A stretch of DNA of 64,000 bases, from NCBI GenBank assembly GCA_025455045.1, contig JALONJ010000001.1, positions 3,642 through 67,641 on the forward strand, in the 5' to 3' direction. Below the pieces are notes generated by a model. That model was given only the letters and a program-made list of their open reading frames with translations, had not been told where the DNA came from and made no database searches. This document shows positions 8,395-49,876 of the stretch, one piece after another. A program made the translations under genes and the position numbers. The stretch is from Microscillaceae bacterium (GTDB lineage Bacteria > Bacteroidota > Bacteroidia > Cytophagales > Microscillaceae). Positions within the stretch are counted from its first letter, which is position 1. Each line of letters opens with the position of its first letter.

Positions 8395-8441
8395 AAGCAA
8401 TAATTTCTGTTAACAATAGTTCGGACAGTTTCTAGTTATTT

Positions 8442-8470
8442 ACTAAGCATCTGATAATCAGTTAGTTACA
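8442..8470. repeat. Family-A palindromic repeat
   Basis: actaagcatc TGATAATCA gttagttaca. Confidence 0.9.
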
Positions 8471-8487
8471 TAAAACATTTAAAATAG

Positions 8488-14308: not shown

Positions 14309-14349
14309 AATTGACCAGAAAATTTAAGTCTTTTTTGACTTAAAACCCT

Positions 14350-14550
14350 CATAAATAAAAAGCCTTCGACTTTTCCGGCTGTGCCGAGCCGATCGCCAAT
14401 AGACAAAAATTCAATGGCTATCTTCCTCTCGAATTTAAACAAAAAAATCAACTCAAAAATCATTTAAGTTTATTTTTTATAAATCTGATTATCAGATACT
14501 TACATTCTTGCTTTATCTCCAAGCTACAGCCTGGTTGTTTGAAGCGCACC
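14350..14550 (+). mobile_element. Family-F MITE-like element, diverged copy F5
   Basis: cataaataaaaagccttcgacttttccggctgtgccgagcc...(A core 14486)...cttacattcttgctttatctccaagctacagcc. Confidence 0.55.
14476..14504. repeat. Family-A palindromic repeat
   Basis: tttataaatc TGATTATCA gatacttaca. Confidence 0.9.
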
Positions 14551-14627
14551 ATAAACTTCATTTGTCAATCATCCCATAACCGATATTTGTAAGTATTTGA
14601 TTTTCAGTTATTTACCAAATCGGTTGT

Positions 14628-14836
14628 GGGAAGTCTTCCGAAGGGAGACTGCAAACCAATAATGAAACAGAATGTCTTGACATTCTAACTGCCTCAAGCG
14701 GTTTATAGGCGTGGGTGGCTGTAGGCTAGGGATAAGTTAAGAATGTAAGTATCTGATAATCAGGTGTTTATTATTGAATTTAGGCAACCAAAACCAGCTC
14801 GGCAAAGCCGGAAAGGTCGGATACCTTTTATTCATT
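14628..14836 (-). mobile_element. Family-F MITE-like element, reverse-oriented copy F6
   Basis: Reverse complement of the F1 layout: gaagtcttccgaagggagac...gcctcaagcggtttataggcgtgggtggctgtaggctagg...(A core 14754)...ctcggcaaagccggaaaggtcggataccttttattcatt. Confidence 0.65.
14744..14772. repeat. Family-A palindromic repeat
   Basis: tgtaagtatc TGATAATCA ggtgtttatt. Confidence 0.9.
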
Positions 14837-15556: not shown

Positions 15557-15827
15557 AGTTTTTTTTATAAAGTGATAAAACTGATTCAAAAATAATTTTA
15601 TTGCCCCATTTAACTAAGTAATATTCGGAGTTTTGTGTAAATTTTGAGTTCATTCAACATCGGTTTAAATCGTGCAGGAAGCTCAAAATTAGGCTTACTT
15701 CTCTAGCAAGTGATAAGCAAGAATTAAACCTTTGTATCAGCAAATTTTCAAAAATCTAAGCAAAATCATAGTATATCAGCTAAATTCTCCCGAAAATTGT
15801 GATTGATTAAATTGTTTGGTTACAAAA

Positions 15828-16442
15828 ATGTCTAAAAAGGCTAAATTTAGTGATACACCCGAGCCCCTCATTTGGCAAGCCTTCAAAACCGGTGATGAAG
15901 AGGCATTTAATTATATTTTTAATCAATACGCGCGTTTTTTGTTCAATTATGGTGATAAAATTGCCCAAAATGAAGGCTTAGTTGAAGATTGCATTCAAGA
16001 GTTATTCATAGAATTGTGGGAGAAAAAAGCCAAATTGGGCGAGGTTCAGTCTATCAAATATTATTTGCTAAAATCTTTGCAACGCAAAATTTTACGCAAA
16101 TTGAACAAAAATCGAAAGATGCTGACCAACGAAGATTCTGACTTACTTTTCAATGACGATTTGATTGATTTTCCCTACGAAAATCATCTGATTCAATCCC
16201 AGACCAATCTCGAACAACAAGAAAAACTCCAAAAAGCCCTTGCTTTATTATCCGACCGGCAAAGGCAAGTCCTGTTTTTGAAATACTATGACCAATTGGA
16301 CTATGAAGAAATTGCGCGCGTGATGTCGATGAATGTCAAAGCAATTTATGATTTGATTTACCAAGCGATCAAATCACTCAAAAAAATCTTCAACAAGGGT
16401 TTACTTTTTATTTTTTATACAATTTTTTCTTTTTTCAATTAA
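15828..16442 (+). CDS. RNA polymerase ECF-type sigma-70 factor
   Basis: about 204 aa from ATG 15828; region 2 (FNYIFNQYARFLFNYG, VEDCIQELFIELWEK) and region 4 (LSDRQRQVLFLKYYDQLDYEEIARVM). Confidence 0.88.
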   Translation: MSKKAKFSDTPEPLIWQAFKTGDEEAFNYIFNQYARFLFNYGDKIAQNEGLVEDCIQELFIELWEKKAKLGEVQSIKYYLLKSLQRKILRKLNKNRKMLTNEDSDLLFNDDLIDFPYENHLIQSQTNLEQQEKLQKALALLSDRQRQVLFLKYYDQLDYEEIARVMSMNVKAIYDLIYQAIKSLKKIFNKGLLFIFYTIFSFFN

Positions 16443-16603: not shown

Positions 16604-17671
16604 ATGGAAAATTACAACAAAAATTACCTCACTTTCACAGTCGAAGATTTTGCCACTGATGAATCTTTCCAACAATGGGTTTTTGCTGCCAATTCGGAAG
16701 CCGAAGCATTTTGGGAGGAATGGCTTAGGCAAAACCCCCAAAAATTGCCTCTGATTGAAGAAGCAAAAACTATGTTATTAACTTTAGGTTTTTCGCAAAC
16801 GTTTGTGGCTACCGAAAGAATCCAAAAAGTAAAACTTGCCATTGACCAATACATTCAAAATCAGCCGACTACTGTTCAGGTACGAACGCCCAAAACCAAT
16901 CGTTCAATTGCCTCAAAATCAAGGTATTATTATGGAATAGCCGCCTCAGTAGTGGGTATTTTGGCTTTGAGTTTTTTGATTTTTTATGTCCTACAAAAAC
17001 CAACATCGTTGGTTTATCAAACCGATTTTGGCGAAACCAAAGAAATTGTATTGCCCGATGGTAGCCAAGTGGTGCTTAATCCTCATTCCAAAATCACTTA
17101 TCAATTAACCCAACAAGCCCGGCAAGTTTGGCTCGATGGCGATGCACTTTTTAAGGTAAATAAAGTCTTAAATAACTCAAAATCAGGCACTTATCAGCCT
17201 TTTATAGTCTATGCCAAACACCTCAAAGTCAAAGTTTTGGGAACCGAATTTAATGTAAAATCGAGCCAACGCCAAACCGATGTGGTGCTTCACTCGGGCA
17301 AGGTTGAATTGTATTTGAATGACGCGCCCCAAAAACCTCACTACGTAATGAAACCCGGCGAACAAGCCATTTACACTAGCCAACAAGCCCAACTAAAGCT
17401 TAACCGGCTAGAAACCGAAAAACTAGACGCTTGGAAACAAAATAAATTGATTTTTGATGAATTGACTTTGCAAGAAATTGCCGCCATCATTCAAGAAAAA
17501 TATGGTTTGGAAATGGTTTTTGAAGACCCCACCCTAGCGCAAAAGAAATTTGTGGGAGCAGTTCCAAACGATAAAGTGGAAATGCTGTTTACCACCCTCA
17601 CCAAACTGTATGGAATTGAAATTGAAAAAAAGGGCAAACAAGTGATTTTGAAAAGTTGGCGTGAAGAATGA
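16604..17671 (+). CDS. FecR-family anti-sigma factor
   Basis: 355 aa; N-terminal cytoplasmic domain, one TM (YGIAASVVGILALSFLIFYVL), FecR domain (LPDGSQVVLNPHSKITY...VKVLGTEFNV) and C-terminal DUF4974-like part; follows the ECF sigma gene. Confidence 0.88.
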   Translation: MENYNKNYLTFTVEDFATDESFQQWVFAANSEAEAFWEEWLRQNPQKLPLIEEAKTMLLTLGFSQTFVATERIQKVKLAIDQYIQNQPTTVQVRTPKTNRSIASKSRYYYGIAASVVGILALSFLIFYVLQKPTSLVYQTDFGETKEIVLPDGSQVVLNPHSKITYQLTQQARQVWLDGDALFKVNKVLNNSKSGTYQPFIVYAKHLKVKVLGTEFNVKSSQRQTDVVLHSGKVELYLNDAPQKPHYVMKPGEQAIYTSQQAQLKLNRLETEKLDAWKQNKLIFDELTLQEIAAIIQEKYGLEMVFEDPTLAQKKFVGAVPNDKVEMLFTTLTKLYGIEIEKKGKQVILKSWREE

Positions 17672-17688
17672 TAATTTGATTTAAAAAA

Positions 17689-17717
17689 TGTAAGTCATTG
17701 ATAATCAGGTATTTATA
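17689..17717. repeat. Family-A palindromic repeat
   Basis: tgtaagtcat TGATAATCA ggtatttata. Confidence 0.9.
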
Positions 17718-17733
17718 AAATAATTTAGAAAAA

Positions 17734-17762
17734 TGTAACTAGCTGATTATCAGATACTTACC
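17734..17762. repeat. Family-A palindromic repeat
   Basis: tgtaactagc TGATTATCA gatacttacc. Confidence 0.9.
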
Positions 17763-17796
17763 AACAATATTTCGGGTATTTTTTATAAGTAATTGA

Positions 17797-17817
17797 CTGC
17801 ATTTCGCCCAAGACGAA
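17797..17817 (+). mobile_element. Family-K 21-nt remnant splitting a Family-A palindrome at its centre
   Basis: tataagtaatTGA [ctgcatttcgcccaagacgaa] TAATCAatgaattatg; removing the bracketed insert restores a canonical element. Confidence 0.6.
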
Positions 17818-17849
17818 TAATCAATGAATTATGATTTTCAAATAATTTA

Positions 17850-17878
17850 TATAACTCATTGATTATCAGATATTTAGC
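17850..17878. repeat. Family-A palindromic repeat
   Basis: tataactcat TGATTATCA gatatttagc. Confidence 0.9.
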
Positions 17879-17882
17879 CAAT

Positions 17883-18008
17883 AACTAGAAACCCGAAACT
17901 CGGAACTAGAAACCCGAAACCCGGAACTAGAAACCCGAAACCCGGAACTAGAAACCCGAAACTCGGAACTAGAAACCCGAAACTCGGAACTAGAAACCCG
18001 AAACTCGG
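17883..18008 (+). repeat. 21-bp tandem repeat x6 (AACTAGAAACCCGAAACTCGG; copies 2 and 3 have C instead of T at position 18)
   Basis: Six head-to-tail units read directly, followed by partial aacta; unit is related to the Family-C arm tctagttccgagtt; ends 65 nt before the susC-like ATG. Confidence 0.95.
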
Positions 18009-18073
18009 AACTATGGTAATAAAAATAGCAATTAAAAACTCTTACATAATTAATTATAAAACCAACAAGCAAT

Positions 18074-21000
18074 ATGTGGAAATATGTACTTATTAATCAA
18101 TTCAAAAACTTACCGCTTTTGATCGGTTTATTGGGTTTTAGCTCGTTCCAATTGTTTGCCCAACCGCCGTTGGTGGCTAACCAACTGACAGCCTCCAGCA
18201 AAACGAGGCTTTATCAAGAAAAAGCACAAAGCCGCACGCTCAAAACGGTATTGAGCGAGTTGGAAAATCGAATGAAGATTTCGGTTAGTTATGATTCGGA
18301 AACTATTCAAGGGAAAAATGTAGATGCAAACGTTTTAGATGCCCTCAATCGGGCAAAAGATGCCGAAACCTCATTGCGGATTTTATTAAATCCCTTCCAA
18401 TTAGATTTTGAAAAATTGGCAGAAAATTACTACGTAATTGTCAAAAGCCGCAAAAAAACCAAAATTCAAAAATTGGGTCGCAAAACCAATTTAGAATTAA
18501 TTGAAACCCCAAAAATCGACCGAAAATTACCCAGAAGTCTCAAAACTGAAATTTTAGAAAAAAACAATGTGTCCACCGAAACCACTCGAAGTATTAGTGG
18601 CACAGTCAAAGACTCCAAAGGTGAACCCATACCCGGTGTGGCTGTCATCGTCAAGAACACAATGGTAGGCACTACCACCGATATCAACGGTAAATATACA
18701 CTCAATGTACCCGAGGGTAGTAATGTACTGATTTTTTCGAGTGTGGGCTACCTCACCCAAGAAATAACCCTTGATGCCAATGCCGTGATTGATGTCGTAT
18801 TGCAAGATAATGTGGCTAACCTCCAAGAAATTGTGGTCATTGGCTATGGCACTGTCCAAAAAAGCGACTTAACCGGCTCGGTTGCTTCCTTAAAAAGTGA
18901 TGAAATCGTTAAAATCCCATCTTTCAACCCCCTACAGGCTTTGCAAGGCAAAATAGCGGGGGTACAAGTGAGCAGTAGCTCGGGCGCACCCGGCGAAGCC
19001 CCAGTAGTCCGCATTAGAGGAGTTGGTACTACCAATGATGCTTCGCCGCTCTATGTAGTAGATGGGGTTTTCGTGAACGATATTTCGTTTATTAGTCCAG
19101 CTGACATCGAGTCGATGGAGGTTTTGAAAGATGCCTCCTCTACGGCTATTTATGGCTCAAGAGGGGCTAATGGCGTAGTGATTGTTACCACTCGTCGAGG
19201 CAAAGAAGGCAAGACCCGCGTAGCCGTCAATGGCAGAGTAAGCCAACAAATTATTCCCCAAAAATTAGATTTGTTGAATGGGCGAGAGTTTGCTACCGTG
19301 GTCAATGAATTTGCTCCCGGCACATTCAATAACATTGATTTAGTGCCTAACATCGATTGGCAGTCGGAAATCTTTACTACTCCTGCCCCGATTTATGATT
19401 TTGATGTATCGTTTTCGGGGGGAAGCTCCCAAAATTCGTATTACGTAGGCATTGGTTATTTCAATCAAAAGGGGGTAGTTCCCAAATCATTTTATGACCG
19501 ATTGAATTTAAAATTGAATAATCGGTATTCCTTAACCTCCAAATTACAATTTGGACACGATATTACTGTATCTCGCTATACCCGCAAAAACGCCCCCAAT
19601 GTAGTGGCTACCGCCTACCGATCTTGGCCTACCGACCCGCCTCGCAATGCTGCCGGTCAGTTTTTGGCAGTACGCAATGCCGGCAATGCTTTGGCAGACT
19701 TGGAATATACCAACAATCGGACTGTCGGAGTACGCGCTGCCGGAAGCGTGTATGGTACGCTTACCATTTTGCGCGATTTTACTTTTAAAAGTAGTCTAGG
19801 TTTCGATGGTGACTTGTCCAAATCCGAATCATTTGCGCCCGTGTTTTTTGTTTCGCCAATTCAGCAAAACCCTACCAATGATTTGTTCAAGGCCAATAAC
19901 GAGGCTTTTACTTGGGTGTGGGAAAATACTTTGAACTATTTCAAAAAAATGGGCAATCATCAACTCGACGCTTTGCTAGGTTATACGATGCAAGAATCTA
20001 GGGCTGAATTTCTCAATGGGGGAATACAAAATCTCCTCCGCGAAGACCCAAGCCAATGGTATATCAATGCCGGAGATGTAACTACCCGCACGGTAGGCAA
20101 TAATGCCTTGGAGTGGGCAATGATTTCTTATTTGTTTAGAGCCAATTATAGTTTTAAAAGCAAATACCTTTTGACTTTTACGGGGCGAGTTGATCAGTCA
20201 TCGAGATTTGGGCGAAACAAGCGCACCAGTTTTTTTCCTTCGGTAGCCGCCGGTTGGAATATTTCGCAAGAGTCATTTATGCAATCGGTCAAAATGGTCG
20301 ATAACCTCAAGCTCCGAGCCAGTTATGGCGTTTTGGGTAATGATAAAATTGACCCCTATGCCCAGTTTGCTCGGGTCGGTAGTGTCGATGCCGTATTTGG
20401 TAATGCTTTGCAACCCGGGGCTACTTTGAGCAATTTGGGTAACCCAGATTTGGGATGGGAGAATACAGCGATGCTAGATATAGGCTTGGAAATTGGGCTA
20501 CTAAATAACCGCCTAACGGCAGAGTTTGATTACTTTCAAAGGGTTACAAGCGATATTTTGATTGCCTTGAATGTGCCGGGGCATGCGGGGATTGGCTTTG
20601 GTTCAAGAGTCCTCAGAAATGCCGCCAAAGTGAAAAATACCGGTTTAGAATTTAATATTAATTGGAATGACCAAATTGGCGAAGTGAAATACCAAATTGG
20701 CATTTTGGGCAATACCCTCCGTAATCGGGCTATCAATCTAGGTGGCAGTGAAAACAATATTTTTGATGGCAATTTAGGCAATGGGCAACAAGTGAGCCTT
20801 ACCCAAGCCGGACAACCTTTGGGGGCATTTTACGGCTATCAAGTAATCGGAGTTTTCCAAACTTTGGAGGAATTAAATCAATCGGCAAGATTGTCTTCTC
20901 AAGGAGTAGGTGATTTGCGATTTGCTGATTTGAATGGTGATGGCGTGATTACACCGGCAGGTGACCGCACTTTTATTGGTTCACCTATTCCTGATTTCAT

Positions 21001-21469
21001 CTATGGATTCAATTTAGGGGCTACCTATAAAAGCTTCAGTTTATCATTGGATTTTCAGGGGCAAATGGGCAATGAGATTTATAATGGCAAACAAGCCGTG
21101 CGTCCCGAGATATACAATTTTGAAGGCAGAGTGCGCAATCGCTGGACTGGACCCGGCACCAGCAATACCGAACCCCGCGCTACCGCTGAAGGAGCTAATT
21201 ATTCACCTTCCAATTATTTTATTGAAAATGGCTCTTTTTTGCGTTTGCGAAACATCTCTTTGAGCTACAATGTACCACAAAGTCTATTGGATAAACTAAA
21301 ACTCAGTACAGCCAAAATATATTTGAGTGGTACCAATGTATTTACGCTTACCCAATTTACCGGTTACTCGCCCGAAATTGGTAGTAATTCGCCCATTTCA
21401 GCCGGAATAGACCTAGGAATTTACCCAATTACAGCTATTTATTCAATTGGTTTTAATGTTGGATTTTAA
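18074..21469 (+). CDS. SusC/RagA-family TonB-linked outer membrane protein with N-terminal STN signalling domain
   Basis: 1131 aa; STN-like LKTVLSELENRMKISVSYDSE; carboxypeptidase-regulatory-like domain ISGTVKDSKGEPIPGVAVIVKNTMVGTTTDINGKYTL; plug (VVIGYGTVQKSDLTGSV); C-terminal beta-barrel ending in F. Confidence 0.93.
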   Translation: MWKYVLINQFKNLPLLIGLLGFSSFQLFAQPPLVANQLTASSKTRLYQEKAQSRTLKTVLSELENRMKISVSYDSETIQGKNVDANVLDALNRAKDAETSLRILLNPFQLDFEKLAENYYVIVKSRKKTKIQKLGRKTNLELIETPKIDRKLPRSLKTEILEKNNVSTETTRSISGTVKDSKGEPIPGVAVIVKNTMVGTTTDINGKYTLNVPEGSNVLIFSSVGYLTQEITLDANAVIDVVLQDNVANLQEIVVIGYGTVQKSDLTGSVASLKSDEIVKIPSFNPLQALQGKIAGVQVSSSSGAPGEAPVVRIRGVGTTNDASPLYVVDGVFVNDISFISPADIESMEVLKDASSTAIYGSRGANGVVIVTTRRGKEGKTRVAVNGRVSQQIIPQKLDLLNGREFATVVNEFAPGTFNNIDLVPNIDWQSEIFTTPAPIYDFDVSFSGGSSQNSYYVGIGYFNQKGVVPKSFYDRLNLKLNNRYSLTSKLQFGHDITVSRYTRKNAPNVVATAYRSWPTDPPRNAAGQFLAVRNAGNALADLEYTNNRTVGVRAAGSVYGTLTILRDFTFKSSLGFDGDLSKSESFAPVFFVSPIQQNPTNDLFKANNEAFTWVWENTLNYFKKMGNHQLDALLGYTMQESRAEFLNGGIQNLLREDPSQWYINAGDVTTRTVGNNALEWAMISYLFRANYSFKSKYLLTFTGRVDQSSRFGRNKRTSFFPSVAAGWNISQESFMQSVKMVDNLKLRASYGVLGNDKIDPYAQFARVGSVDAVFGNALQPGATLSNLGNPDLGWENTAMLDIGLEIGLLNNRLTAEFDYFQRVTSDILIALNVPGHAGIGFGSRVLRNAAKVKNTGLEFNINWNDQIGEVKYQIGILGNTLRNRAINLGGSENNIFDGNLGNGQQVSLTQAGQPLGAFYGYQVIGVFQTLEELNQSARLSSQGVGDLRFADLNGDGVITPAGDRTFIGSPIPDFIYGFNLGATYKSFSLSLDFQGQMGNEIYNGKQAVRPEIYNFEGRVRNRWTGPGTSNTEPRATAEGANYSPSNYFIENGSFLRLRNISLSYNVPQSLLDKLKLSTAKIYLSGTNVFTLTQFTGYSPEIGSNSPISAGIDLGIYPITAIYSIGFNVGF

Positions 21470-21481
21470 ATTCATAAGTAT

Positions 21482-22972
21482 ATGAAAATCAAGATTTTAA
21501 CAATATTATTTTCAGTTTTTTTGCTCACCGCTTGCCAAGATTTTTTGGAGCGACCTCCCCTTGGGGAATTGACCGAAGCTAATTTTTTTCAGACCGAAAG
21601 AGACGCGCTCTTGGCAACTAATGCCATTTACAACACTTTGCGTGAATGGTTTTTGAGTGGCGGTTTTCCGCTCATTGAGATTATGGGCGATGATGCTACC
21701 AAAGGAAGCAATCCAACCGATGCCCCGCAAGTGGCTACCTACGATAATTTCACCTTCAACCCTAGCCAAGACTTGATTTTGGGAATGTACTCAACCCTTT
21801 ATAAAGGAGTTAGACGCGCCAATGCGGTCATTGAAAGAGTGCCACCTATTGCGATGAACGAAACCCTCAAAAGACGTTTGATTGGCGAAGCTAGATTTTT
21901 GCGGGCTTATTTTTATTTTGATTTGGTCAGGGCTTTTGGCGATTTGCCCAAAGTAACTACTACTTTGCCATCATTAAAACTAGCCCGCTCGCCCAAAGCC
22001 GAAATTTATAATGAAATCATTATTCCTGATTTATTATTTGCCATCGAAAATTTGGTAGAAAGAAGTGAATACCCTGCCACCGATATAGGCAGAGCTACCA
22101 AAGGCGGGGCAAGAGGCTTATTATCAAGGGTTTATCTGTTTTTGGGTGATTTTGTCAATGCCGAAAAATACGCACTTGAAGTCATCAACTCGGGGCAATA
22201 TGCTTTAGAACCTGACTATCAAAAAGAAATGAGCGTAGAAGGCGAACACGGACCCGGCTCATTGTTTGAGATTAGTGCCGTTTCGCAGGAATTTGGACTC
22301 GGCGGCAATCAATTTGGCAATACTCAAGGCGTGCGCGGCTCGCCCGACAAGGGTTGGGGATTTTGCCGCCCTTCCTTCAATTATTTGACTTTTATGGGCT
22401 ATCAAGCTAGTCCTGACCCTCGTATGGATGCCTCCGTGATTTTTTTGGGGGAAATATTGAATGGGGAAGCCTTGTTGGGTGATGCCGGTACGCCCGACGT
22501 TACTTATGCCGACCCACCTACCAATAGCATTATCAGAGAAATTGAATGTTATAATCAAAAAGTATTTGTCCCGGGGGCTGGCTCGCTTAGCTCTTGGGGG
22601 CATAACCGCAGAATTGTCCGCTATGCCGATGTTTTGTTGATGGCAGCCGAGGCAATGAACGAAAACGGCAAATCTGCTCAAGCCCTGCCTTATCTCAACT
22701 TGGTAAGACAACGAGCTAACAATGCTAATCCGGGTTCGGTGCCGAATATTACTGAAACCAATCAAGCCCCCCTTCGCCAAATCATTTGGAATGAACGGCG
22801 TAGAGAATTGGCTCTGGAAGGTCACCGTTTTTGGGATTTGATTCGTACCAATCGGGCTTCGGCAGTCTTAGGAAGCCTCGGCTTTGTAGCCAACAAACAC
22901 GAGCTTTTGCCGATTCCACAAATCGAGATTGACTTGTCGGAAGGTACACTCAGTCAAAATCCAAATTGGTAA
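21482..22972 (+). CDS. RagB/SusD-family nutrient uptake outer membrane lipoprotein
   Basis: 496 aa; lipobox LLTAC; 12 nt downstream of the SusC-like gene; SusD-like blocks (GEARFLRAYFYFDLVRAFGDLP, ERRRELALEGHRFWDLIR). Confidence 0.92.
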   Translation: MKIKILTILFSVFLLTACQDFLERPPLGELTEANFFQTERDALLATNAIYNTLREWFLSGGFPLIEIMGDDATKGSNPTDAPQVATYDNFTFNPSQDLILGMYSTLYKGVRRANAVIERVPPIAMNETLKRRLIGEARFLRAYFYFDLVRAFGDLPKVTTTLPSLKLARSPKAEIYNEIIIPDLLFAIENLVERSEYPATDIGRATKGGARGLLSRVYLFLGDFVNAEKYALEVINSGQYALEPDYQKEMSVEGEHGPGSLFEISAVSQEFGLGGNQFGNTQGVRGSPDKGWGFCRPSFNYLTFMGYQASPDPRMDASVIFLGEILNGEALLGDAGTPDVTYADPPTNSIIREIECYNQKVFVPGAGSLSSWGHNRRIVRYADVLLMAAEAMNENGKSAQALPYLNLVRQRANNANPGSVPNITETNQAPLRQIIWNERRRELALEGHRFWDLIRTNRASAVLGSLGFVANKHELLPIPQIEIDLSEGTLSQNPNW

Positions 22973-22987: not shown

Positions 22988-23030
22988 TAGTTTTTAGTTT
23001 CGGGTTTCTAGTTCCGAGTTATTAGTTATT
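22988..23030 (-). repeat. Family-C arm fragment
   Basis: tagtttttagtttcgggtttctagttccgagttattagttatt, reverse complement of the 21-bp tandem unit; just downstream of the SusD-like gene. Confidence 0.75.
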
Positions 23031-23045
23031 CTTGAAATATCTGAT

Positions 23046-23137
23046 TGCATTTCGCCCCCAAAACTGCGTTCTGTGGCACACAGAACGTAAATTGATTTAT
23101 CGGAAGACAGACTCAAGCGAAATCCGAATTGTTAAAA
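23046..23137 (+). mobile_element. Family-K 92-nt insert splitting a Family-A palindrome at its centre
   Basis: Left half-site gaaatatcTGAT (to 23045) and right half-site aATCAataaatta (from 23138) are separated by tgcatttcgccccc...cgttctgtg g cacagaacg...gcgaaatccgaattgttaaaaac. Confidence 0.65.
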
Positions 23138-23259: not shown

Positions 23260-24504
23260 ATGCAAATCAAACAATTTTTTCTCAAAACCTTAGCTTGGGT
23301 AATGTTTCTTGCCCTCTTTACCGCTTGTAAAAAAGATGACCCCGAGCCAACTCCGCTTACCCTGGTGTCGCTCAGAGCCGGTACCATTGATTTGAATGGG
23401 GCAACGTCCGCTACCAATATTCCCGTAGGAACCAATATTGTGGCGGAGTTTTCTACCGAGGTAGATGATGCCAGCAAATCCGCTATTACGCTAACCCGCA
23501 CTACCGACAATGTAAATTTGGCTACTACCATTACCGTAAGTGGCAAAACTATTACTATTGCCCCTAATGAGATTTTTGGTACAGGTACTCCGTTTACCTT
23601 GCGATTTGGTAGTGCCTTACGCAGTACCGCCGGATTAACTTTGGGAACTAATACCGACCGTAGTTTTACCTCTGAGGGTACTTTTGCCGCTCCGGGCGCA
23701 TTTGCTCACTGGACATTTGAAGACAATGCCAATGACATTGTTGGTACGTATGACCCCACTGCCAATCAAATTGTGGCTATTACCTACGTAGCCGGACGCA
23801 AAGCCGCCGCCGGTAAAGCTGCTTCTTTTAACGGCACAACCAGTATCATTGAAATTTCAAATGGTAGTGGCTTGATGAATAACGGATCTTGGGCTTTGAG
23901 TCTCTGGGTAAAACCTAACTCTAGCTTAGGTAAAGGGCATTTTGTACTGGGCTTAGGTGGAGTTAATGGCTTTCAATTCGAGATTCCGGGCAATTATGAA
24001 AATTGTAAACTAGCGGCAAGCTACGCCCATACCAACCCAGCCGGAGCCGGCACTACTACCGAAGATTTGTGGGTAGATGCTACCGGCAATTTGGGCTGGC
24101 AGGGCTGGACTTTCTCCAAAGATTATGCCGGAGCTTTTGATGACCTCATCAAAGACCAGTGGGTAAATATGGTATTTGTGTACAATGCTACCGACAGAAC
24201 CGGTACCGCTTATGTGAATGGTGAAAGAGCCAAAGCCCAAGATTTTGACAACTGGCCGGCTGGCGACAACAAACGTTTTGTTACTGGCTTGCAATGGCAG
24301 GGAGCTTTGCCTTTAGTCGCCAATGAATTAGCCTTTGGTTTTATTCGCTCGCGCAATGGCACTTTATTCGCCGATACTGATTGGGGCGATTATGCCAAAC
24401 CGGGAGCCAATCACTTCCACGGGTTATTAGATGATGTGATTATTTACAAAAAAGCATTGACCCAAGCCGAAATTACTGCTATGTATAACTCTGGCAAACC
24501 TTAA
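23260..24504 (+). CDS. surface lipoprotein with N-terminal Ig-like (SbsA/Big_5-type) domain and C-terminal LamG/concanavalin-A-like lectin domain
   Basis: 414 aa; lipobox LFTAC; LamG-type C-terminus (SLWVKPNS..., HFHGLLDDVIIYKKALTQAEITAMYN); position expected for a PUL surface glycan-binding protein. Confidence 0.7.
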   Translation: MQIKQFFLKTLAWVMFLALFTACKKDDPEPTPLTLVSLRAGTIDLNGATSATNIPVGTNIVAEFSTEVDDASKSAITLTRTTDNVNLATTITVSGKTITIAPNEIFGTGTPFTLRFGSALRSTAGLTLGTNTDRSFTSEGTFAAPGAFAHWTFEDNANDIVGTYDPTANQIVAITYVAGRKAAAGKAASFNGTTSIIEISNGSGLMNNGSWALSLWVKPNSSLGKGHFVLGLGGVNGFQFEIPGNYENCKLAASYAHTNPAGAGTTTEDLWVDATGNLGWQGWTFSKDYAGAFDDLIKDQWVNMVFVYNATDRTGTAYVNGERAKAQDFDNWPAGDNKRFVTGLQWQGALPLVANELAFGFIRSRNGTLFADTDWGDYAKPGANHFHGLLDDVIIYKKALTQAEITAMYNSGKP

Positions 24505-24516
24505 TCATTAAACATT

Positions 24517-24548
24517 ATCAAGATGAGGCAAATTTGCCTTATCTTGAT
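24517..24548 (+). terminator. long hairpin after the LamG lipoprotein gene
   Basis: atcaagatgaggcaaa tttgccttatcttgat; 15 paired positions with one bulge; no clear T-run. Confidence 0.5.
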
Positions 24549-24571
24549 TATTTAAAAAAATAATAAAAACA

Positions 24572-24600
24572 CATAATTACTTGATAATCAATTAGTTGTG
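24572..24600. repeat. Family-A palindromic repeat
   Basis: cataattact TGATAATCA attagttgtg. Confidence 0.9.
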
Positions 24601-24633
24601 AAAATATTTTAAAAATTTGATTCTTACTTTTTT

Positions 24634-24709
24634 CAGGAAAATTGTAACGTGAGCTGTCTAGCCTGCGCGCGCAAGCGACTTTAGACCACTTCTAAGCTAA
24701 ATGATTCCT
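24634..24709 (+). repeat. Family-B GC-hairpin repeat, about 75-nt full copy
   Basis: caggaaaattgtaacgtGAGCTGtctaGCCTGCgcgcgcaagcgactttagaccacttctaagctaaatgattcct. Confidence 0.8.
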
Positions 24710-24772
24710 ATAAAATAGTGAGGAATCCTTTTCAATTCCGTAGTTATTCATTTATTTAAGCCTTAAAATTAT

Positions 24773-26758
24773 ATGACCAGATTGCAAATATGGCAGCTTA
24801 TTTTTACAATTGTTTTTATCAATTCCAATTGTAAAAAAGACTCTATTGTACCGCCACAAGTAGGTATTTTTCAAATCATCAGTGCTAGAGTCGGCACAAG
24901 CGACCTCATAGTCAATCAAACAATTGAAAACACCCCCATTGACCGCCCAATTGTGATAAGTTTTAACCAAAAACTCAATCGAAATTTGGTGGAGGCTAAT
25001 ATCAGCTTGCTTGATTCCGATAACAAAAAAGTAGCCATTGACCTGGCTTATTTAGACGAAGATAAAACCGTTTCGCTCACGCCAGCCGCCCCTTTAAATT
25101 TATTGGCAAATTATAAACTCTTGATTGACAATAAGCTACAAAGTGTTGAACAGGCGGTATTTCCGGGTATTCAGTTTCTATTCACAACTCAAGCCGGAGA
25201 GTTGGTTTTACAATCGTTGAATGCCAATAACATCAGTTTCTTGACCAACAATCGAGTCAATAATGTCAATCGAAATTTGCAAATCCAAGCTGTTTTTTCG
25301 CAAGCTCTTGACCCTCAAACGGTTAATAGTGAAAGTATTAGAATTTTACAAGGCTCAAATTTGATTGCCCTTACAATGCAACTTAGTACCGACAAAAAGA
25401 CCCTCAATATTCAATCGCTTGAACCTCTGCCCCATTTATATAAATATACCATTCGCCTTTCAGATGCCCTTACTACTCTCGATAAAAAATACAAATTTAA
25501 AGTATTTAGCAAATCCTTTGTAACTACAGTGGACGAAACTCCTAAGTTTCCCATCATTTCTGATGAAGCCTTATTGACTTTAATTCAACAACAAACTTTT
25601 AAATATTTCTGGGATTTTGCTCATCCGACTAGCGGTTTAGCCCGTGAGCGCAATACTTCAGGTGATGTGGTAACTTCGGGCGGCTCGGGTTTTGGCATTA
25701 TGAGTATGATTGTGGCGATTGAGCGGGGCTTTATCACCCGCCAACAAGGAATTGATAGATTGGAAAAAATTGTCAATTTTTTGGCAACCGCCGACCGATT
25801 TCACGGCGTTTGGTCACATTGGCTGAATGGGGCTACCGGCAAAGCCATTGCTTTTAGTGCCAAAGATGATGCTGCCGATTTAGTCGAGACTTCTTTTTTG
25901 ATGCAAGGTTTACTCACTTTTCGCCAATATTTGAACTCAAGCAATACTCAAGAAAAAACTCTGATTGACAAAATCAATCAACTTTGGCAAACCACCGAAT
26001 GGGATTGGCATACCCGTGGCGGGCAAGATGTATTGTATTGGCACTGGTCGCCCAGATTTGGTTGGGATATGAATTTTGCGATTCGAGGATTCAATGAATG
26101 TTTGATTACTTATTTTTTGGCGGCGGCTTCGCCTACCCATTCCATCAAGGCTTCGGTGTATCACGATGGCTGGGCAAAAAGCAGTTTTTTCAAAAATGGC
26201 AAGTCATTTTACAACATTACTTTACCACTAGGTTTCGATTTTGGCGGACCTTTGTTTTTTTCGCATTACTCATTCTTGGGTTTAAATCCCAAAAACCTAT
26301 CGGATACGTATGCCAATTATTGGACACAAAACGTAAATCATACGCTCATCAATCGAGCCTACTGTGTTGATAATCCCAAAAAATACGCTCTTTATAGTGC
26401 CAAATGTTGGGGTTTGACCGCCAGCGACAATCACATTGGGTATTCTGCCCACTCGCCTACCGAAGATTTAGGCGTAATCAGCCCTACGGCGGCGGTTTCG
26501 GCACTACCTTACACGCCCGAATACTCAATGGAAGCAATCAAATATTTTTATTATACCTTGGGCGATAGATTATGGGGGCAATATGGCTTTTATGATGCTT
26601 TTACGCCCGACGAGGGCTGGGTTGCCAGTTCTTATTTGGCAATTGACCAAGGACCAATTATTGTAATGATTGAAAACTATCGCACCGGTTTGCTCTGGAA
26701 TTTATTTATGTCTTGCCCCGAAGTAGCCAATGCCAAAACCAAATTGGGATTTAATTAA
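24773..26758 (+). CDS. glucoamylase-family (PF10091-like, GH144-like) putative beta-1,2-glucanase with N-terminal Ig-like domains
   Basis: 661 aa; lipobox-like FINSNC; catalytic part begins FKYFWDFAHPTSGLARERN...SGGSGFGIMSMIVAIERGFI; family assignment from memory of the conserved N-terminal block, not from an alignment. Confidence 0.65.
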   Translation: MTRLQIWQLIFTIVFINSNCKKDSIVPPQVGIFQIISARVGTSDLIVNQTIENTPIDRPIVISFNQKLNRNLVEANISLLDSDNKKVAIDLAYLDEDKTVSLTPAAPLNLLANYKLLIDNKLQSVEQAVFPGIQFLFTTQAGELVLQSLNANNISFLTNNRVNNVNRNLQIQAVFSQALDPQTVNSESIRILQGSNLIALTMQLSTDKKTLNIQSLEPLPHLYKYTIRLSDALTTLDKKYKFKVFSKSFVTTVDETPKFPIISDEALLTLIQQQTFKYFWDFAHPTSGLARERNTSGDVVTSGGSGFGIMSMIVAIERGFITRQQGIDRLEKIVNFLATADRFHGVWSHWLNGATGKAIAFSAKDDAADLVETSFLMQGLLTFRQYLNSSNTQEKTLIDKINQLWQTTEWDWHTRGGQDVLYWHWSPRFGWDMNFAIRGFNECLITYFLAAASPTHSIKASVYHDGWAKSSFFKNGKSFYNITLPLGFDFGGPLFFSHYSFLGLNPKNLSDTYANYWTQNVNHTLINRAYCVDNPKKYALYSAKCWGLTASDNHIGYSAHSPTEDLGVISPTAAVSALPYTPEYSMEAIKYFYYTLGDRLWGQYGFYDAFTPDEGWVASSYLAIDQGPIIVMIENYRTGLLWNLFMSCPEVANAKTKLGFN

Positions 26759-26760
26759 AA

Positions 26761-26790
26761 CAATAGTTCGTTGGTTTCTAGTTCCGAGTT
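26761..26790 (-). repeat. Family-C arm fragment
   Basis: caatagttcgttggtttctagttccgagtt. Confidence 0.75.
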
Positions 26791-26836
26791 GCTGTTGCCT
26801 GTGTCCTCACAGGCAACCAACTCAATCTATGCTTTT

Positions 26837-26869
26837 AACTTCGGCAAAGTTTAAAACTTTGCCGAAGTT
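26837..26869. repeat. Family-D perfect hairpin
   Basis: AACTTCGGCAAAGTTtaaAACTTTGCCGAAGTT. Confidence 0.9.
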
Positions 26870-26875
26870 TGGCGG

Positions 26876-26904
26876 ACTAACTCATTGATAATCAATTATT
26901 TACA
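26876..26904. repeat. Family-A palindromic repeat
   Basis: actaactcat TGATAATCA attatttaca. Confidence 0.9.
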
Positions 26905-27006
26905 TTTAAAATAAAATTGATTTTTCCCTAGCGAGGGCTCACCAGGGAAAAATCTCCTTACCCTTGTCTGTGTCCTCACAGGCAACCAACTCGAATCTAA
27001 GCTTTT

Positions 27007-27039
27007 AACTTCGGTAAAGTTTAAAACTTTGCCGAAGTT
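27007..27039. repeat. Family-D hairpin
   Basis: aacttcggtaaagtttaaaactttgccgaagtt (one mismatch). Confidence 0.9.
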
Positions 27040-27045
27040 TGGCAA

Positions 27046-27074
27046 GATAACTCATTGATAATCAATTATTTATA
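27046..27074. repeat. Family-A palindromic repeat
   Basis: gataactcat TGATAATCA attatttata; core ends 21 nt before the bglX ATG. Confidence 0.9.
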
Positions 27075-27085
27075 TTCAAATAAAA

Positions 27086-29335
27086 ATGAAAAAAGGTTTA
27101 ATCTTCGCTTTGATAAGTTTACTAATATTGGAACTCAAAAGCCAAACTTTAATCAAACAACCGTATCAACCAAGCCCCAAAGCCCTTGAATTTGTACAAA
27201 ACCTGATTCAAAAAATGACTTTGGAGGAAAAAATCGGGCAAATGACCCTCTTTACCAGCGACTGGGATGTAACCGGACCCACCATTCGCGCTAATTACCA
27301 AGCCGATATTCAAGCCGGTAAAGTAGGTTCAATTTTTAATGCTCATACGGCTGAATATACCCGCAAATTACAAAAAATTGCCGTCGAGCAAACCCGCCTC
27401 AAAATACCACTTTTGTTTGGTTATGATGTCATTCACGGGCATAAAACCATTTTTCCCAGTCCCTTAGCCGAGTCTTGCACTTGGGATATGGCTTTGATTG
27501 AAAAAAATGCCCATTATTCTGCCAAAGAAGCCGCCGCTTCGGGTTTGCATTGGATATTTAACCCAATGGTTGATGTTGCCCGCGACCCGCGCTGGGGGCG
27601 AGTATCCGAAGGCTCAGGCGAAGATACTTATTTGGGGAGTTTGATTGCCCAAGCCAAAGTCAAAGGCTATCAAGGCTCTAATTTGCAAGACCCATTTACA
27701 ATTTTGGCTTGTGTAAAACACTTTGCCGCCTATGGGGCTGCCCAAGCGGGGCGCGACTACCATACCGTAGATATGTCGGAGCGCGTATTGCGCGAAACGT
27801 ACCTGCCCCCTTACAAGGCGGCGATTGATGCCGGTTGCTTTTCGGTAATGACTTCTTTCAACGAATATGATGGCGTACCGGCAAGTGGTAATGCTTTTTT
27901 ATTACAAAAAATTTTGCGCCAAGAATGGAATTTTAAAGGTTTGGTAGTTACCGATTATACTTCAATGAATGAGATGGTAGCGCACGGCATTGTAGCCGAC
28001 GAAAAAGCCGCCGGTGAGCTTGCGCTCAATGCCGGAGTTGATTTGGATATGCAGGGCGCAGTATATTATAATTATTTGAAAAAAAGCCTTGCCGAAGGCA
28101 AAATCACCGAAAGGCAAATCAATGAAGCGGTCAAAAATGTGTTATTGGCAAAATATGAATTAGGCTTGTTTACTGACCCGTATCGCTATTCGGATGCAGC
28201 CCGAGAAAAAGCCACAATTTTTGCTCCCGAAATAATGAATCACGCACGGATAGCCGCCCAAAAATCCATTGTGTTGCTCAAAAACGAGCCTTTTCGGGGT
28301 AGAAAAATTCTGCCTTTAGCCAAAAACATTCAAAAAGTGGCACTTATTGGCCCTTTGGCAAATAATCAAGAAGATATGTTGGGTAATTGGCGCGCTGCCG
28401 GAGATATTTCCAAAGCAGTTACCATTTTGCAAGGTATCAAAGAAGCCCTAGGCAGCAATGCCGAAGTGAAATATGCCAAAGGCTGTGATTTTAAGGGTAA
28501 TGATACGCAGGGCTTTGAGGAAGCAATCGCCTTGGCAAAAAATGCCGAAGTAGTGATTTTGGCAATGGGCGAAAACCAAGCCCAAAGTGGCGAAGCCGCC
28601 AGTCGCTCCGACTTAGGACTGCCGGGTGTCCAACAACAATTGGTAGAAGCCATTTACAAGCTCGGCAAGCCAACGGTTATACTTTTGAGCAATGGCAGAC
28701 CCCTGACTATCAGTTGGTTAGCCGAAAACGCTCCGGCAATTCTCGAAACTTGGCATTTGGGAACAATGGCGGGCAAAGCAATTGCCGATGTTTTGTTTGG
28801 TGATTATAATCCCAGTGGCAAATTGACAATGACTTTTCCGAGGAGTGTCGGGCAAATTCCGATTTTTTATAATCCCAAAAATACTGGCAGACCCTTTAAT
28901 GCCCAAGACAAATACACCAGCAAATATTTGGATATTTCGAATGAACCTTTGTTTCCGTTTGGCTTTGGCTTGAGTTATACTGATTTTAGTTATCAAAATA
29001 TGAAATTAAATAAAAATCAACTGAAAGCGAATGATGAAATAGGGGTAAGCATTGAAGTAAAAAACATCGGCAATTTGGCAGGCGAAGAAATAGTGCAATT
29101 GTATGTGCAAGATTTGGTCGGCAGTGTTACGCGCCCCATCAAGGAATTGAAAGGATTTCAAAAAATATTATTACAAGCTGGTGAAACCAAAACGGTCAGT
29201 TTCAAACTCAAAACTCAAGATTTAGCATTTTATACTCAGGATATGAGTTTTAAGCCCGAAGCTGGAAAGTTTAAAGTAATGATTGGCACACATTCCAATT
29301 CTACCCAAGACCTGATTTTGGAGTTGGTGGATTGA
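27086..29335 (+). CDS. bglX: glycoside hydrolase family 3 beta-glucosidase (BglX-like)
   Basis: 749 aa; signal peptide; GH3 blocks (KIGQMTLF, GYDVIHGH, ARDPRWGRVSEGSGEDTYL, GLVVTDYTSM) and C-terminal fibronectin-like domain. Confidence 0.92.
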   Translation: MKKGLIFALISLLILELKSQTLIKQPYQPSPKALEFVQNLIQKMTLEEKIGQMTLFTSDWDVTGPTIRANYQADIQAGKVGSIFNAHTAEYTRKLQKIAVEQTRLKIPLLFGYDVIHGHKTIFPSPLAESCTWDMALIEKNAHYSAKEAAASGLHWIFNPMVDVARDPRWGRVSEGSGEDTYLGSLIAQAKVKGYQGSNLQDPFTILACVKHFAAYGAAQAGRDYHTVDMSERVLRETYLPPYKAAIDAGCFSVMTSFNEYDGVPASGNAFLLQKILRQEWNFKGLVVTDYTSMNEMVAHGIVADEKAAGELALNAGVDLDMQGAVYYNYLKKSLAEGKITERQINEAVKNVLLAKYELGLFTDPYRYSDAAREKATIFAPEIMNHARIAAQKSIVLLKNEPFRGRKILPLAKNIQKVALIGPLANNQEDMLGNWRAAGDISKAVTILQGIKEALGSNAEVKYAKGCDFKGNDTQGFEEAIALAKNAEVVILAMGENQAQSGEAASRSDLGLPGVQQQLVEAIYKLGKPTVILLSNGRPLTISWLAENAPAILETWHLGTMAGKAIADVLFGDYNPSGKLTMTFPRSVGQIPIFYNPKNTGRPFNAQDKYTSKYLDISNEPLFPFGFGLSYTDFSYQNMKLNKNQLKANDEIGVSIEVKNIGNLAGEEIVQLYVQDLVGSVTRPIKELKGFQKILLQAGETKTVSFKLKTQDLAFYTQDMSFKPEAGKFKVMIGTHSNSTQDLILELVD

Positions 29336-29519: not shown

Positions 29520-29643
29520 AAACAGGTTCTTGGAAATCTTCAGACTAAGAAGCCCTATTTCGGTAGTCTCCGACTACCCTCCGCCAAAGGCGGATCACCC
29601 GCCACGCATTGCTAAAATCTAAGCAAATACACTCAATATAACG

Positions 29644-29870: not shown

Positions 29871-30037
29871 CTAATCTTCAATAATGCCTTTCCAGAGCGT
29901 ATCACGTGAAATTTGCATACTCAAAGATAAGCATTTTTTCAATATTTGGAAAGATTTTTTTTACAACTAATTGATTACCAATCACTTATTCACTTTCTTT
30001 AAAACAAAAAACAAGCAGTTTTCACTACTTGTGTTTG

Positions 30038-30066
30038 TATAAAATTCTGATTATCATATACTTACA
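30038..30066. repeat. Family-A palindromic repeat
   Basis: tataaaattc TGATTATCA tatacttaca; start of truncated Family-F copy F2. Confidence 0.9.
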
Positions 30067-30186: not shown

Positions 30187-30210
30187 TTAGCAAATCCGAA
30201 AGAGCTAAGA

Positions 30211-39077: not shown

Positions 39078-39214
39078 AAACACAAATTCTTAAGTTATTT
39101 TTTAATCGTTCCTTAGCAAATAACTCGGAACTGGAAACTATCCGAACTATTGTTTTTAAAAGATTACTCATTTTGATAAGTCATTGCATTTTCTTATAAT
39201 ATATATTTTTTTGA

Positions 39215-47350: not shown

Positions 47351-47479
47351 CAATAGTTTGGACAGTTTCCGGTTTCTAGTTATTTGCTAAGTGCTTGATT
47401 ATCATATAGTTATAAAAAATATTTGAAATAGCATAACTAACAGATAATCAAGCACTTATAAAAAATGCCCGAAGTATTG
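47351..47479. mobile_element. Family-C composite element (129 nt), second copy
   Basis: caatagtttggacagtttccggtttctagttatttgctaag...(A core 47396)...aaaatatttgaaatag...(agataatca 47442)...aaaaatgcccgaagtattg. Confidence 0.7.
47386..47414. repeat. Family-A palindromic repeat
   Basis: gctaagtgct TGATTATCA tatagttata. Confidence 0.9.
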
Positions 47480-49107: not shown

Positions 49108-49159
49108 AACTCAGAACTCAAAACTAGAAACTCAAACTAGAAACTAGAAACTCGGAACT
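49108..49159 (+). repeat. degenerate tandem array of Family-C arm units
   Basis: aactcagaactcaaaactagaaactcaaactagaaactagaaactcggaact; abuts the porin stop codon. Confidence 0.7.
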
Positions 49160-49876
49160 CTAATTAGCCGATTTTTGTATTTGAAAAAAAGCCCCCAAAT
49201 TAAAAGTAAGCACCAAAGCCGACTGTTTTTGGCGAGCGGCGTACAAAGCATTGGCTTTCATATTAAAATCCAAACTCCAGCGTTCATTCAATTGGTAATT
49301 ACAACCCACCACCGGGGCTACGCCAAAATTAGTATCATTGCCATTGATTTTTAAATTATTGTTTTCCAAAAAAGGGCGGAGATTAGCCGGAATGGGCTGT
49401 CCGGTTGCGGTTGATAATTTTAAGATAATTTCGCCCAAATCCAAGTCTTCAGTGTCATTGATATACATACCTAAATCAAGACCCAAATACGGGCGGATTT
49501 TCTCAGTCAAAATATAATATTCAAAGCCAATATTAATGGGGAAAAAATTTACCTTAGGGATTTCAATTTTATCTGTGCCAAGCTGATTTGCCAAGCGCAA
49601 CAGATCTGCGGTAGCTTGGCTCAAGCCCAACCTTAGAGCAAAATCGCCAATATCGCCGCCACTGCGCCCAAAAGCATAGAAGCCCACCCCGTTGGTCAGG
49701 GCAAAACGTGGCGAAATCTGGTATTTACCGGCAATTATTGCCCCAAAACCATTTTTGTTGATAGTTCCAAAATCGCCGGTGGGTATGGAATAGCCAAAAC
49801 TTGCCCCCAAACGCAGTTGAGCCGGTAAATTGCCAAACGTGAAACAAAAAATAAGAAATACAAAGATTTTCTTCAT
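49160..49876 (-). CDS. outer membrane beta-barrel protein (porin-family)
   Basis: 238 aa; signal peptide MKKIFVFLIFCFTFGNLPAQ; alternating beta pattern. Confidence 0.7.
   Translation of the reverse strand: MKKIFVFLIFCFTFGNLPAQLRLGASFGYSIPTGDFGTINKNGFGAIIAGKYQISPRFALTNGVGFYAFGRSGGDIGDFALRLGLSQATADLLRLANQLGTDKIEIPKVNFFPINIGFEYYILTEKIRPYLGLDLGMYINDTEDLDLGEIILKLSTATGQPIPANLRPFLENNNLKINGNDTNFGVAPVVGCNYQLNERWSLDFNMKANALYAARQKQSALVLTFNLGAFFQIQKSAN

Follow-up and report, generated by a model that had tools for sequence, protein, structure and literature searches.

A tandem array in the spacer between fecR and susC

The DNA analyzed here is a 64,000-nt stretch (the window) of a Microscillaceae bacterium genome (GCA_025455045.1, contig JALONJ010000001.1, positions 3,642 to 67,641), and the element in question is a 21-bp tandem array located in a polysaccharide-utilization locus (PUL), between the gene for a FecR-type anti-sigma factor (fecR) and that for a SusC/RagA-type TonB-dependent transporter (susC). 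The contig comes from a JGI metagenome (sample 3300037462), and its topoisomerase I is 73% identical to the best named matches, from Microscillaceae genomes assembled from metagenomes, which makes the organism an uncultured member of the Cytophagales. The genes of the PUL follow one another in the order extracytoplasmic function (ECF) sigma factor, FecR-type anti-sigma factor, SusC/RagA, SusD, a Big_5/LamG protein, a PF10091 "glucoamylase-like" hydrolase, and a GH3 enzyme; the same order of sigma factor, FecR-like protein, extended SusC, SusD, and glycoside hydrolase is found in the PULs of Bacteroidota that use trans-envelope signaling by ECF sigma factor, anti-sigma factor, and SusC. The N-terminal extension of SusC gave a weak match to the STN model (E = 0.041, 14 bits vs. 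a cut-off of 28.4). The Big_5/LamG protein, the PF10091 ("putative glucoamylase" family) hydrolase, and the GH3 enzyme are encoded at 23260–29335, which, from what is known of PF10091 and GH144, suggests a locus for the utilization of a β-glucan, possibly β-1,2-glucan.

Tandem Repeats Finder reported the array at 17883–18013 with a period of 21, 6.2 copies, 98% matches, a score of 248, and the consensus AACTAGAAACCCGAAACTCGG; the same array read with a period of 7 has 18.6 copies and 72% matches. A pattern search for the unit gave eight matches, compared with none in 100 shuffles, and the in-phase units start at 17883, 17904, 17925, 17946, 17967, and 17988. The array described in the original prediction from this DNA is thus confirmed as real and far beyond chance: six copies stand in phase between the anti-sigma gene and susC, and copy 6 ends at 18008, leaving a gap of 65 nt to the start of the susC-like open reading frame (ORF) at 18074. 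The C for T at unit position 18 that had been described for copies 2 and 3 was also seen, as the single mismatch in each. Every unit comprises three AAC-phased heptamers, giving a run of 19 consecutive heptamers (AACNNNR) in the spacer, and the pentamer AACTA is present at both ends of the 21-bp unit, i.e., at the unit start and again in the sequence that follows copy 6.

The minus-strand ORF at 17866–18072 had been dismissed earlier as a mere translation of the array, and it does yield SSEFRV/SSGFRV repeats and is not called as a gene in the source annotation. Coding on the plus strand was considered and rejected: the unit leaves two frames open, but the one in which susC is read meets a TAA at 18017. 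The predicted RNA fold of the array is more stable than that of shuffles (−30.4 vs. −16.8 kcal/mol; z = −5), and the tetramer cores CUAG and CCGA/UCGG are self-complementary, but the centroid structure is nearly open. Rfam 15 gave no match in the window, and a relaxed threshold applied to 17600–18200 returned only chance-level miRNA/snoRNA matches (E > 1) on palindromic units 1 and 2 (see below) and none over the array.

The number of copies could in principle be a product of assembly, with an existing array represented by a de Bruijn-graph loop that the assembler went through an arbitrary or minimal number of times. The usual JGI metaSPAdes setting, like common metagenome assemblers, goes up to a k-mer of 127, and the periodic stretch, at 131 bp, is just above that length; there are also two contigs (70,046 and 72,121 bp) with identical proteins. 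However, with a C inside units 2 and 3, no 127-mer of the array occurs twice, and these interior variants argue that it was resolved rather than collapsed; the part containing only T spans only 68 bp, and family members with two to eight heptamers (see below) show the tract type to be genuine. An assembly-made copy number is considered very unlikely.

The unit is a module of a dispersed element

At least six further intergenic sites of the window (8414, 22990, 26761, 39122, 47351, and 49108) contain AAC-phased heptamer modules. They form part of an element that consists of an AT-rich palindromic unit (TAAnnnnnTGATWATCAnnnnnTTA), the linker TTAGCAAAT, two to eight AACNNGR heptamers, and the closing motif AACTATTG. 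When the array is collapsed to one unit, it fits these modules column for column (TTAGCCAAT AACTAGA AACCCGA AACT-CGG AACTATGG). The closing motif is present in four other modules, three of which also have the linker, and the combination of palindrome, linker, heptamers, and closing motif recurs at 8414, 17852, 39113, and 47351. The earlier proposal that the unit was amplified from a dispersed repeat family is upheld. The tracts of the family range from 2 to 19 heptamers.

Family members were found upstream of genes in the sense direction (17883 and 39113), after stop codons in the antisense direction (22990 and 26761), and between convergent genes (8414), with modules after stops or antisense being as frequent as modules upstream of genes. 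Since all orientations relative to genes are represented, the heptamer module is not promoter-specific.

The palindromic unit is itself dispersed. TGATWATCA cores number 62 in the window, compared with 0.78 expected, or about one per kb, and are nearly always intergenic (repeat families D1–D18). Examples are located at 13075, 17699, 17744, 17860, 23175, and 27056, and others in the comparison loci L002–L006 and L083–L085. The unit may be a REP-like element (REP, repetitive extragenic palindromic), a processing site, or a regulator site. Neither terminal inverted repeats nor target-site duplications were evident by eye around the copies in the window, and the hairpin forms with inverted tracts seen in other phyla (see below) likewise had no obvious target-site duplication.

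Orthologous loci do not contain the array

Only three orthologous lineages were represented in the protein collection (L002/L003, L004/L005, and L006); the homologue search of this collection yielded no FecR relative above 71% and no SusC relative above 92% identity. In L004/L005 (SusC 74%, downstream enzymes 87–92%), the fecR–susC spacer is 22 nt long and holds one AT-rich palindrome with the core TGATAATCA, and in L006 (SusC 73%), it is 40 nt long and holds one such palindrome with the core TGATTATCA. The closest relative, L002/L003 (SusC 92%, SusD 94%, and TopA 96%, from the same sample), has a 445-nt spacer with shared flanks and a different insert. In the alignment of L002 with the window, the two spacers agree over the first ~210 nt, through palindromic unit 3, and again over the final ~45 nt in front of the ATG; they diverge after unit 3, and the exact site of the array is taken in L002 by an unrelated, nested GC-rich hairpin. 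This hairpin element is ~190 nt long (L002:2330–2520, and L003:1–140) and has a GC-rich core (gttcggtgtgcc...ggcacaccgaac). A gttctgtggcacacagaac hairpin related to the L002 insert is located after susD in the window (about 23078–23096).

The alignments placed a palindrome right after the fecR stop codon in 4/4 orthologous loci, and in L004, it overlaps the susC start codon. The array was not found in any of the three orthologous lineages, and ~66 kb of the relatives' DNA contained no AAC tracts, whereas the palindromic unit was present in all of those relatives. This comparison is decisive: since the orthologous spacers have no array and L002 has a different insert at the same site, the array is a lineage-specific occupant of a hypervariable site and no part of a conserved promoter or of the conserved sigma/anti-sigma/SusC system, whose fecR–susC spacers in the orthologous PULs measure 22–40 nt.

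FecR is a fast-evolving protein, with identities to the orthologues of 71/70/50%, compared with 92/74/73% for SusC. A mosaic or recombination breakpoint at the spacer was considered and ruled out because FecR evolves fast in all comparisons. Relative to L002, FecR (16604–17671) is 71% identical, while the sigma factor is 88%, SusC 92%, and SusD 94%; in L004, the SusC, SusD, and FecR genes (70–81%) are far more diverged than the downstream enzymes (87–92%).

No promoter is recognizable in or after the array

The original prediction placed the array at or in the ECF-sigma-dependent promoter of susC. Sigma-70-like sites in and after the array showed no excess over shuffles, and no ECF-like AAC-N15-18-CGT motif was present in 17560–18080. 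A scan for TTG...TAnnTTTG, the Bacteroidetes promoter consensus, found only sites with one mismatch, 290–424 nt upstream of the ATG, and the region upstream of the sigma gene has no motif in common with the susC spacer. With no promoter motif found, only a palindrome in the orthologous spacers of 22 and 40 nt, and a different element in L002, the placement could not be sustained. Because a 22-nt spacer cannot hold a promoter and a leader, susC in these relatives is probably transcribed from within or upstream of fecR. Given that this ancestral spacer is too short and that no promoter is recognizable in or after the array, the array is most likely transcribed, either in a long susC leader or as part of a sigma–fecR–susC polycistronic RNA.

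The same data bear on the possibility that the array is a set of DNA-binding sites, in which GGAAC/GAAAC every 7 bp (21 bp being two helical turns) would serve as multiple −35-like sites or as decoys that capture the cognate ECF sigma factor, or else as iteron-like sites for another regulator. AAC-containing −35 elements are typical of ECF promoters, and the 21-bp phasing is exact. However, there is no −10-like CGT 15–18 nt from any AAC, orthologues with the same sigma/anti-sigma/SusC trio do without the array, and the same heptamers are found after stop codons, in antisense, and in unrelated phyla. There is also no rep gene or plasmid context, the neighbors being the PUL and housekeeping genes. 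An array of this kind is regarded as extremely improbable.

An inverted copy of the array follows susD

An inverted, partial copy of the element is located immediately after susD. At 22996–23020, 24 nt past the susD stop codon, its 25 nt match the reverse complement of the array exactly, the only such match in the window, and complementary tracts (22990–23045 and 17865–17920) thereby bracket susC and susD. Because this copy is the closest relative of the array in the window, one of the two was probably derived from the other. It was not found after susD in L002, L004, or L006 and is thus missing together with the array in all relatives. The pair may form a 5′–3′ RNA duplex that brackets susCD, or the copies may recombine; the distance of 5 kb between them weakens both ideas, and no recombinase or invertase was found near the pair among the window ORFs scanned.

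These complementary tracts are one line of support for a cis-acting element at the RNA level, in which the AAC tract would bind a single-strand RNA-binding protein, one per heptamer (a model put forward for TAACTGA repeats), or pair with the inverted GUU tract after susD; in the pairing variant, a duplex of ~25 bp bracketing the susCD mRNA would serve RNase III processing or stabilization. Duplex energy was tried as a test of this pairing and set aside as not discriminating, with other tiles scoring almost as well as the partner.

AAC-phased heptamer tracts are found across phyla

A scan of 596 Gb, with each GTDB species represented by a single genome, for a 17-mer of the array (AACYCGGAACTAGAAAC) gave at least 63 loci. 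About 140 matches are expected by chance for a 17-mer in 596 Gb (an estimate), and the match count alone is uninformative; the context of the matches is far from chance. Among the matches listed, to which all counts in this paragraph apply, 43/63 loci have four or more in-phase AAC positions. The metagenome-assembled genomes that bear tracts are labeled as Pyrinomonadaceae and other Acidobacteriota, Candidatus Binatia, Anaerolineae and Chloroflexia (Chloroflexota), and Nitrospira, and further as Cytophagales, Cyclobacteriaceae, Bacteroidales, Elusimicrobiota, Verrucomicrobia, and Armatimonadota. Many of the tracts fill the spacers of co-directional genes to within a few nucleotides, and several 8-kb loci have four to eight tracts each. 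Tract loci L008–L069 include, for example, L022:7113–7213, L053:1954–2035, L009:4759–4871, and L021 (eight tracts in 8 kb), with the units AACTCGG, AACTAGA, and AACTCGA. An inverted GTT tract lies within 200 nt upstream of the AAC tract in 25 loci and only downstream in none, and six examples that were folded are hairpins, most with stems of 25–35 bp (z = −4.3 to −8.6). In unidirectional tracts that adjoin a downstream start codon, the AAC sense prevails over the other sense by 9 to 3, a weak bias.

A phage origin was ruled out, since 12/12 matches of the 17-mer on viral contigs fall in coding sequence and none in a tract. No Rfam family lay over the tracts of 20 tract-bearing loci; an Acido-Lenti-1 match in L036 is ~750 nt from the tract. 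Searches of the literature, on the heptamer strings as well as on heptamer repeats of Acidobacteria or Chloroflexi, found nothing relevant.

These tracts speak in part for an RNA-level element. The inverted tracts of other phyla fold into stable hairpins, a heptamer tract of Haemophilus influenzae acts through an RNase III-cut hairpin (PMC12721329), unidirectional tracts favor the AAC sense at start codons, and MacGregor proposed binding of S1, Csp, or CsrA to TAACTGA repeats (PMC4679880). However, in every cross-phylum hairpin, the GTT tract stands on the 5′ side of the AAC tract, which is opposite to the order of the susCD pair, whose partner is moreover distant. The orientation bias is small, and the array is 58–65 nt from the ATG rather than adjacent to it. 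On balance, an RNA-level role for the array seems quite unlikely.

A broader proposal is that AAC-phased heptamer tracts (AACTCGG, AACTAGA, AACTCGA, and similar units) constitute an undescribed class of intergenic element that spans phyla, of which the susC array, together with its inverted partner downstream of susD, would be a recently acquired, hyper-expanded member acting on the susCD transcript. We regard this as a speculative and, as a whole, unlikely account. Were such a class real, it would imply a shared factor that recognizes or generates the tracts, e.g., an RNA-binding protein, an RNase III-type processing system, or a mobile-element enzyme. The cross-phylum tracts and their hairpins with fixed arm order are the most interesting lead from this locus, and a census of the class, as well as its linkage to a partner protein, would require nothing but computation.

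Relation to known repeat systems

Among the long simple-sequence repeats (SSRs) of prokaryotes, those with heptanucleotide units form the commonest class (Mrazek 2007, as summarized in PMC4679880). Intergenic TAACTGA repeats upstream of start codons were described in Beggiatoaceae, Cyanobacteria, and five Bacteroidetes (MacGregor 2015, PMC4679880), among them long heptamer arrays in Gramella and Aequorivita; in close relatives of these two, the spacers are shorter and free of repeats (PMC4679880). The susC array is a further case of intergenic heptamer-based tandem repeats, a kind already known. It resembles the repeats of these reports in consisting of tandem 7-nt intergenic units in the "forward" orientation upstream of a start codon. 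As with the long arrays of a few Bacteroidetes (Gramella, Aequorivita, and Elizabethkingia), relatives with the same gene order have shorter, repeat-free spacers; here, the close relatives with conserved gene order that do without the array are L002, L004, and L006. A post-transcriptional role was proposed for TAACTGA (PMC4679880). The MacGregor repeats are TAACTGA and start-adjacent, whereas the array here is AACNNGR and lies at a distance from the ATG, and what was amplified is a 21-bp set of three unlike heptamers, from a tract that belongs to a larger, dispersed element with a palindromic unit.

Comparison with the REP elements and bacterial interspersed mosaic elements (BIMEs) of enterobacteria revealed several shared traits: dispersed, imperfect intergenic palindromes, mosaics with short motifs, several units per spacer, and variability between relatives. 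There is no sequence relation to REP/BIME elements; the AT-rich palindrome described here has a 1-nt centre and is part of a mosaic with a slippage-prone heptamer tract. No REP-associated tyrosine transposase (RAYT-type, TnpA_REP) was found among the ORFs scanned, which were those of the window only. Plasmid iterons, the 17–22-bp direct repeats at replication origins, have a similar unit length and head-to-tail phasing, but the array is found in a chromosomal PUL, with no rep gene, and its unit comes from a dispersed heptamer family.

The mechanism behind the original prediction is that of hmw1A/hmw2A in H. influenzae, where a heptamer-based tandem tract in the 5′ untranslated region (UTR) likewise separates the promoter region from the start codon of a surface protein. 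In this best-studied functional case, the (ATCTTTC)n tract, whose 11–63 perfect 7-nt copies are documented to vary, becomes part of the transcript and base-pairs with a complementary G-rich arm next to it; RNase III cleaves the tract, which determines how strongly the gene is expressed (PMC12721329). The susC array has 6 × 21 bp and no proximal complementary arm.

This precedent is an argument for a contingency or "rheostat" locus, in which slippage in the number of 21-bp units or heptamers would shift promoter spacing or leader length and so tune or switch expression of susC or the whole PUL. The 98% identity of the tract and its site, 65 nt before the start codon of an outer-membrane transporter gene, a position at which phase-variable SSRs are found, fit the proposal, as does a tract length that is labile across family members and between relatives. 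Phase-variable SSRs, however, have short units (1–7 nt) in many near-perfect copies. The 21-bp unit, present in only six copies, with a 7-nt sub-repeat that is degenerate, should slip much more rarely than the classical 1–7-nt tracts. The same type of tract also occurs at sites without a controllable gene, no promoter was recognized upstream of or inside the array, and the genome is that of an environmental member of the Cytophagales and not of a host-adapted pathogen. No second allele of the locus came to light: a look-up by exact protein gave only the source contig, and neither a FecR-based nor a DNA-pattern scan of a metagenome contig collection, which apparently does not include these samples, gave a match. 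A contingency locus is judged unlikely. If copy number does vary in populations, the locus would be a rare case of repeat-tuned PUL expression in environmental Bacteroidota.

Origin of the array

We favor, with moderate confidence, the explanation that the array is a recent, lineage-specific slippage amplification within a REP/BIME-like mosaic repeat that invaded the susC leader. The original fecR–susC spacer would have contained only the stop codon, a palindrome, and the ATG (22–40 nt) and would then have been colonized by copies of the element. Three heptamers (21 bp) with the 5-nt direct repeat AACTA at their borders would have been duplicated by slipped-strand mispairing or unequal exchange; this repeat is the microhomology expected for the first slipped-strand duplication. 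Later rounds would have led to six copies, and the T-C-C-T-T-T pattern of variants may be the record of block duplications. If the array affects expression at all, it would do so incidentally, through the length or structure of the leader, in an amplification that was otherwise presumably neutral, and not as a designed promoter array. The range of tract lengths among family members, together with the lack of the array in all relatives, indicates that the tract is labile in evolution and apparently intrinsically unstable over that timescale.

Three observations weigh against this explanation. The near-perfect identity of the units and their site shortly before the start of a surface transporter gene would also fit a selected contingency locus. 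The occurrence of the same heptamers as tracts and hairpins in distant phyla suggests a shared constraint or factor over random slippage. Finally, the exact 25-nt inverted copy after susD, which is also lineage-specific, is hard to call a coincidence and hints at an interaction at the RNA or DNA level. Even so, the locus cautions against seeing regulatory design in a striking repeat.

Features of the window

The coordinates of the genes, of the parts of the spacer, and of the other family members are compiled in Table 1.

Table 1. Genes of the PUL and members of the repeat family in the window
Feature	Coordinates	Strand	Evidence or remark
ECF-type sigma factor gene (JGI call starts 15828)	15816..16442	+	Sigma70_r2/r4_2; TIGR02937, 79 bits vs. 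cut-off 42.9
FecR-type anti-sigma factor (transmembrane sensor) gene	16604..17671	+	PF04773 (FecR), PF16344 (FecR_C)
Palindromic unit 1 (TAAGTCATTGATAATCAGGTATTTA), directly after fecR stop	17691..17720	.	Repeat families D2/D4
Palindromic unit 2 (TAACTAGCTGATTATCAGATACTTA)	17736..17765	.	Families D3–D5; TGATWATCA core at 17744
Palindromic unit 3 (TAACTCATTGATTATCAGATATTTAG), left neighbor of array, also in L002	17852..17881	.	Family D4
Linker TTAGCCAAT (family consensus TTAGCAAAT)	17874..17882	+	Same linker at 39113, 47382(−), 8438(−)
Six 21-bp units, each AACTAGA-AACCCGA-AACTCGG	17883..18008	+	
Terminal AACTATGG: partial seventh unit (AACTA...) and family closing motif (AACTATTG)	18009..18016	+	
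ATG-proximal leader common to window and L002	18029..18073	+	Alignment
SusC/RagA-type TonB-dependent transporter gene, 172-aa N-terminal extension	18074..21469	+	TIGR04056, residues 173–1131
SusD-like gene	21482..22972	+	PF07980, PF14322
Inverted partial element copy: half palindrome (ATCAGATATTT), then AATAACTAAT AACTCGG AACTAGA AACCCGA AACTAAA	22990..23045	−	Repeat I13; heptamers 22990–23027
Family member: palindromic unit, TTAGTAAAT, AACTAGA, AACTGTCCG, AACTATTG; between convergent genes	8414..8473	−	Heptamer module 8414–8437
Family member: AACTCGG AACTAGA AACCAACG AACTATTG; just past stop of PF10091 hydrolase gene, antisense	26761..26790	−	
Family member: TTAGCAAAT AACTCGG AACTGGA AACTATCCG AACTATTG; 63 nt upstream of TPR histidine kinase gene	39113..39152	+	Heptamers 39122–39152
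Family member: palindromic unit, TTAGCAAAT, AACTAGA AACCGGA AACTGTCCA AACTATTG	47351..47417	−	Heptamers 47351–47381
Second-longest AAC-phased heptamer tract, about 8 heptamers	49108..49162	+	

Other repeats and an unusual gene were noted in the same window. An unrelated heptamer tract, RATTCCT, is present in 7.7 copies at 60772–60825, right after a degenerate palindromic unit and ~130 nt upstream of a gene at 60958. A larger dispersed repeat family, with 130–200-nt copies of 85–98% identity in direct and inverted orientation, is represented at 14342–14836, 29643–30476, and 59074–59145, and contains GC-rich hairpins such as GGTCTCCGACC and GAAGTCTCCCTTCGGAAGACTTC. At 2471–6826, one ORF of 1451 aa encodes a full AcrB-type resistance-nodulation-division (RND) transporter (residues 5–1036) joined, from residue 1076 on, to repeats of the outer-membrane-factor (OEP) type; unless it is a frameshift-free assembly artefact, the fusion is an unusual one. 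Lastly, a perfect 58-bp tandem duplication at 50250–50366 covers the topA start codon and 36 nt upstream of it; the segment is single-copy in the TopA relatives L084 (96%) and L083 (93%), making this a second very recent tandem duplication in the contig.

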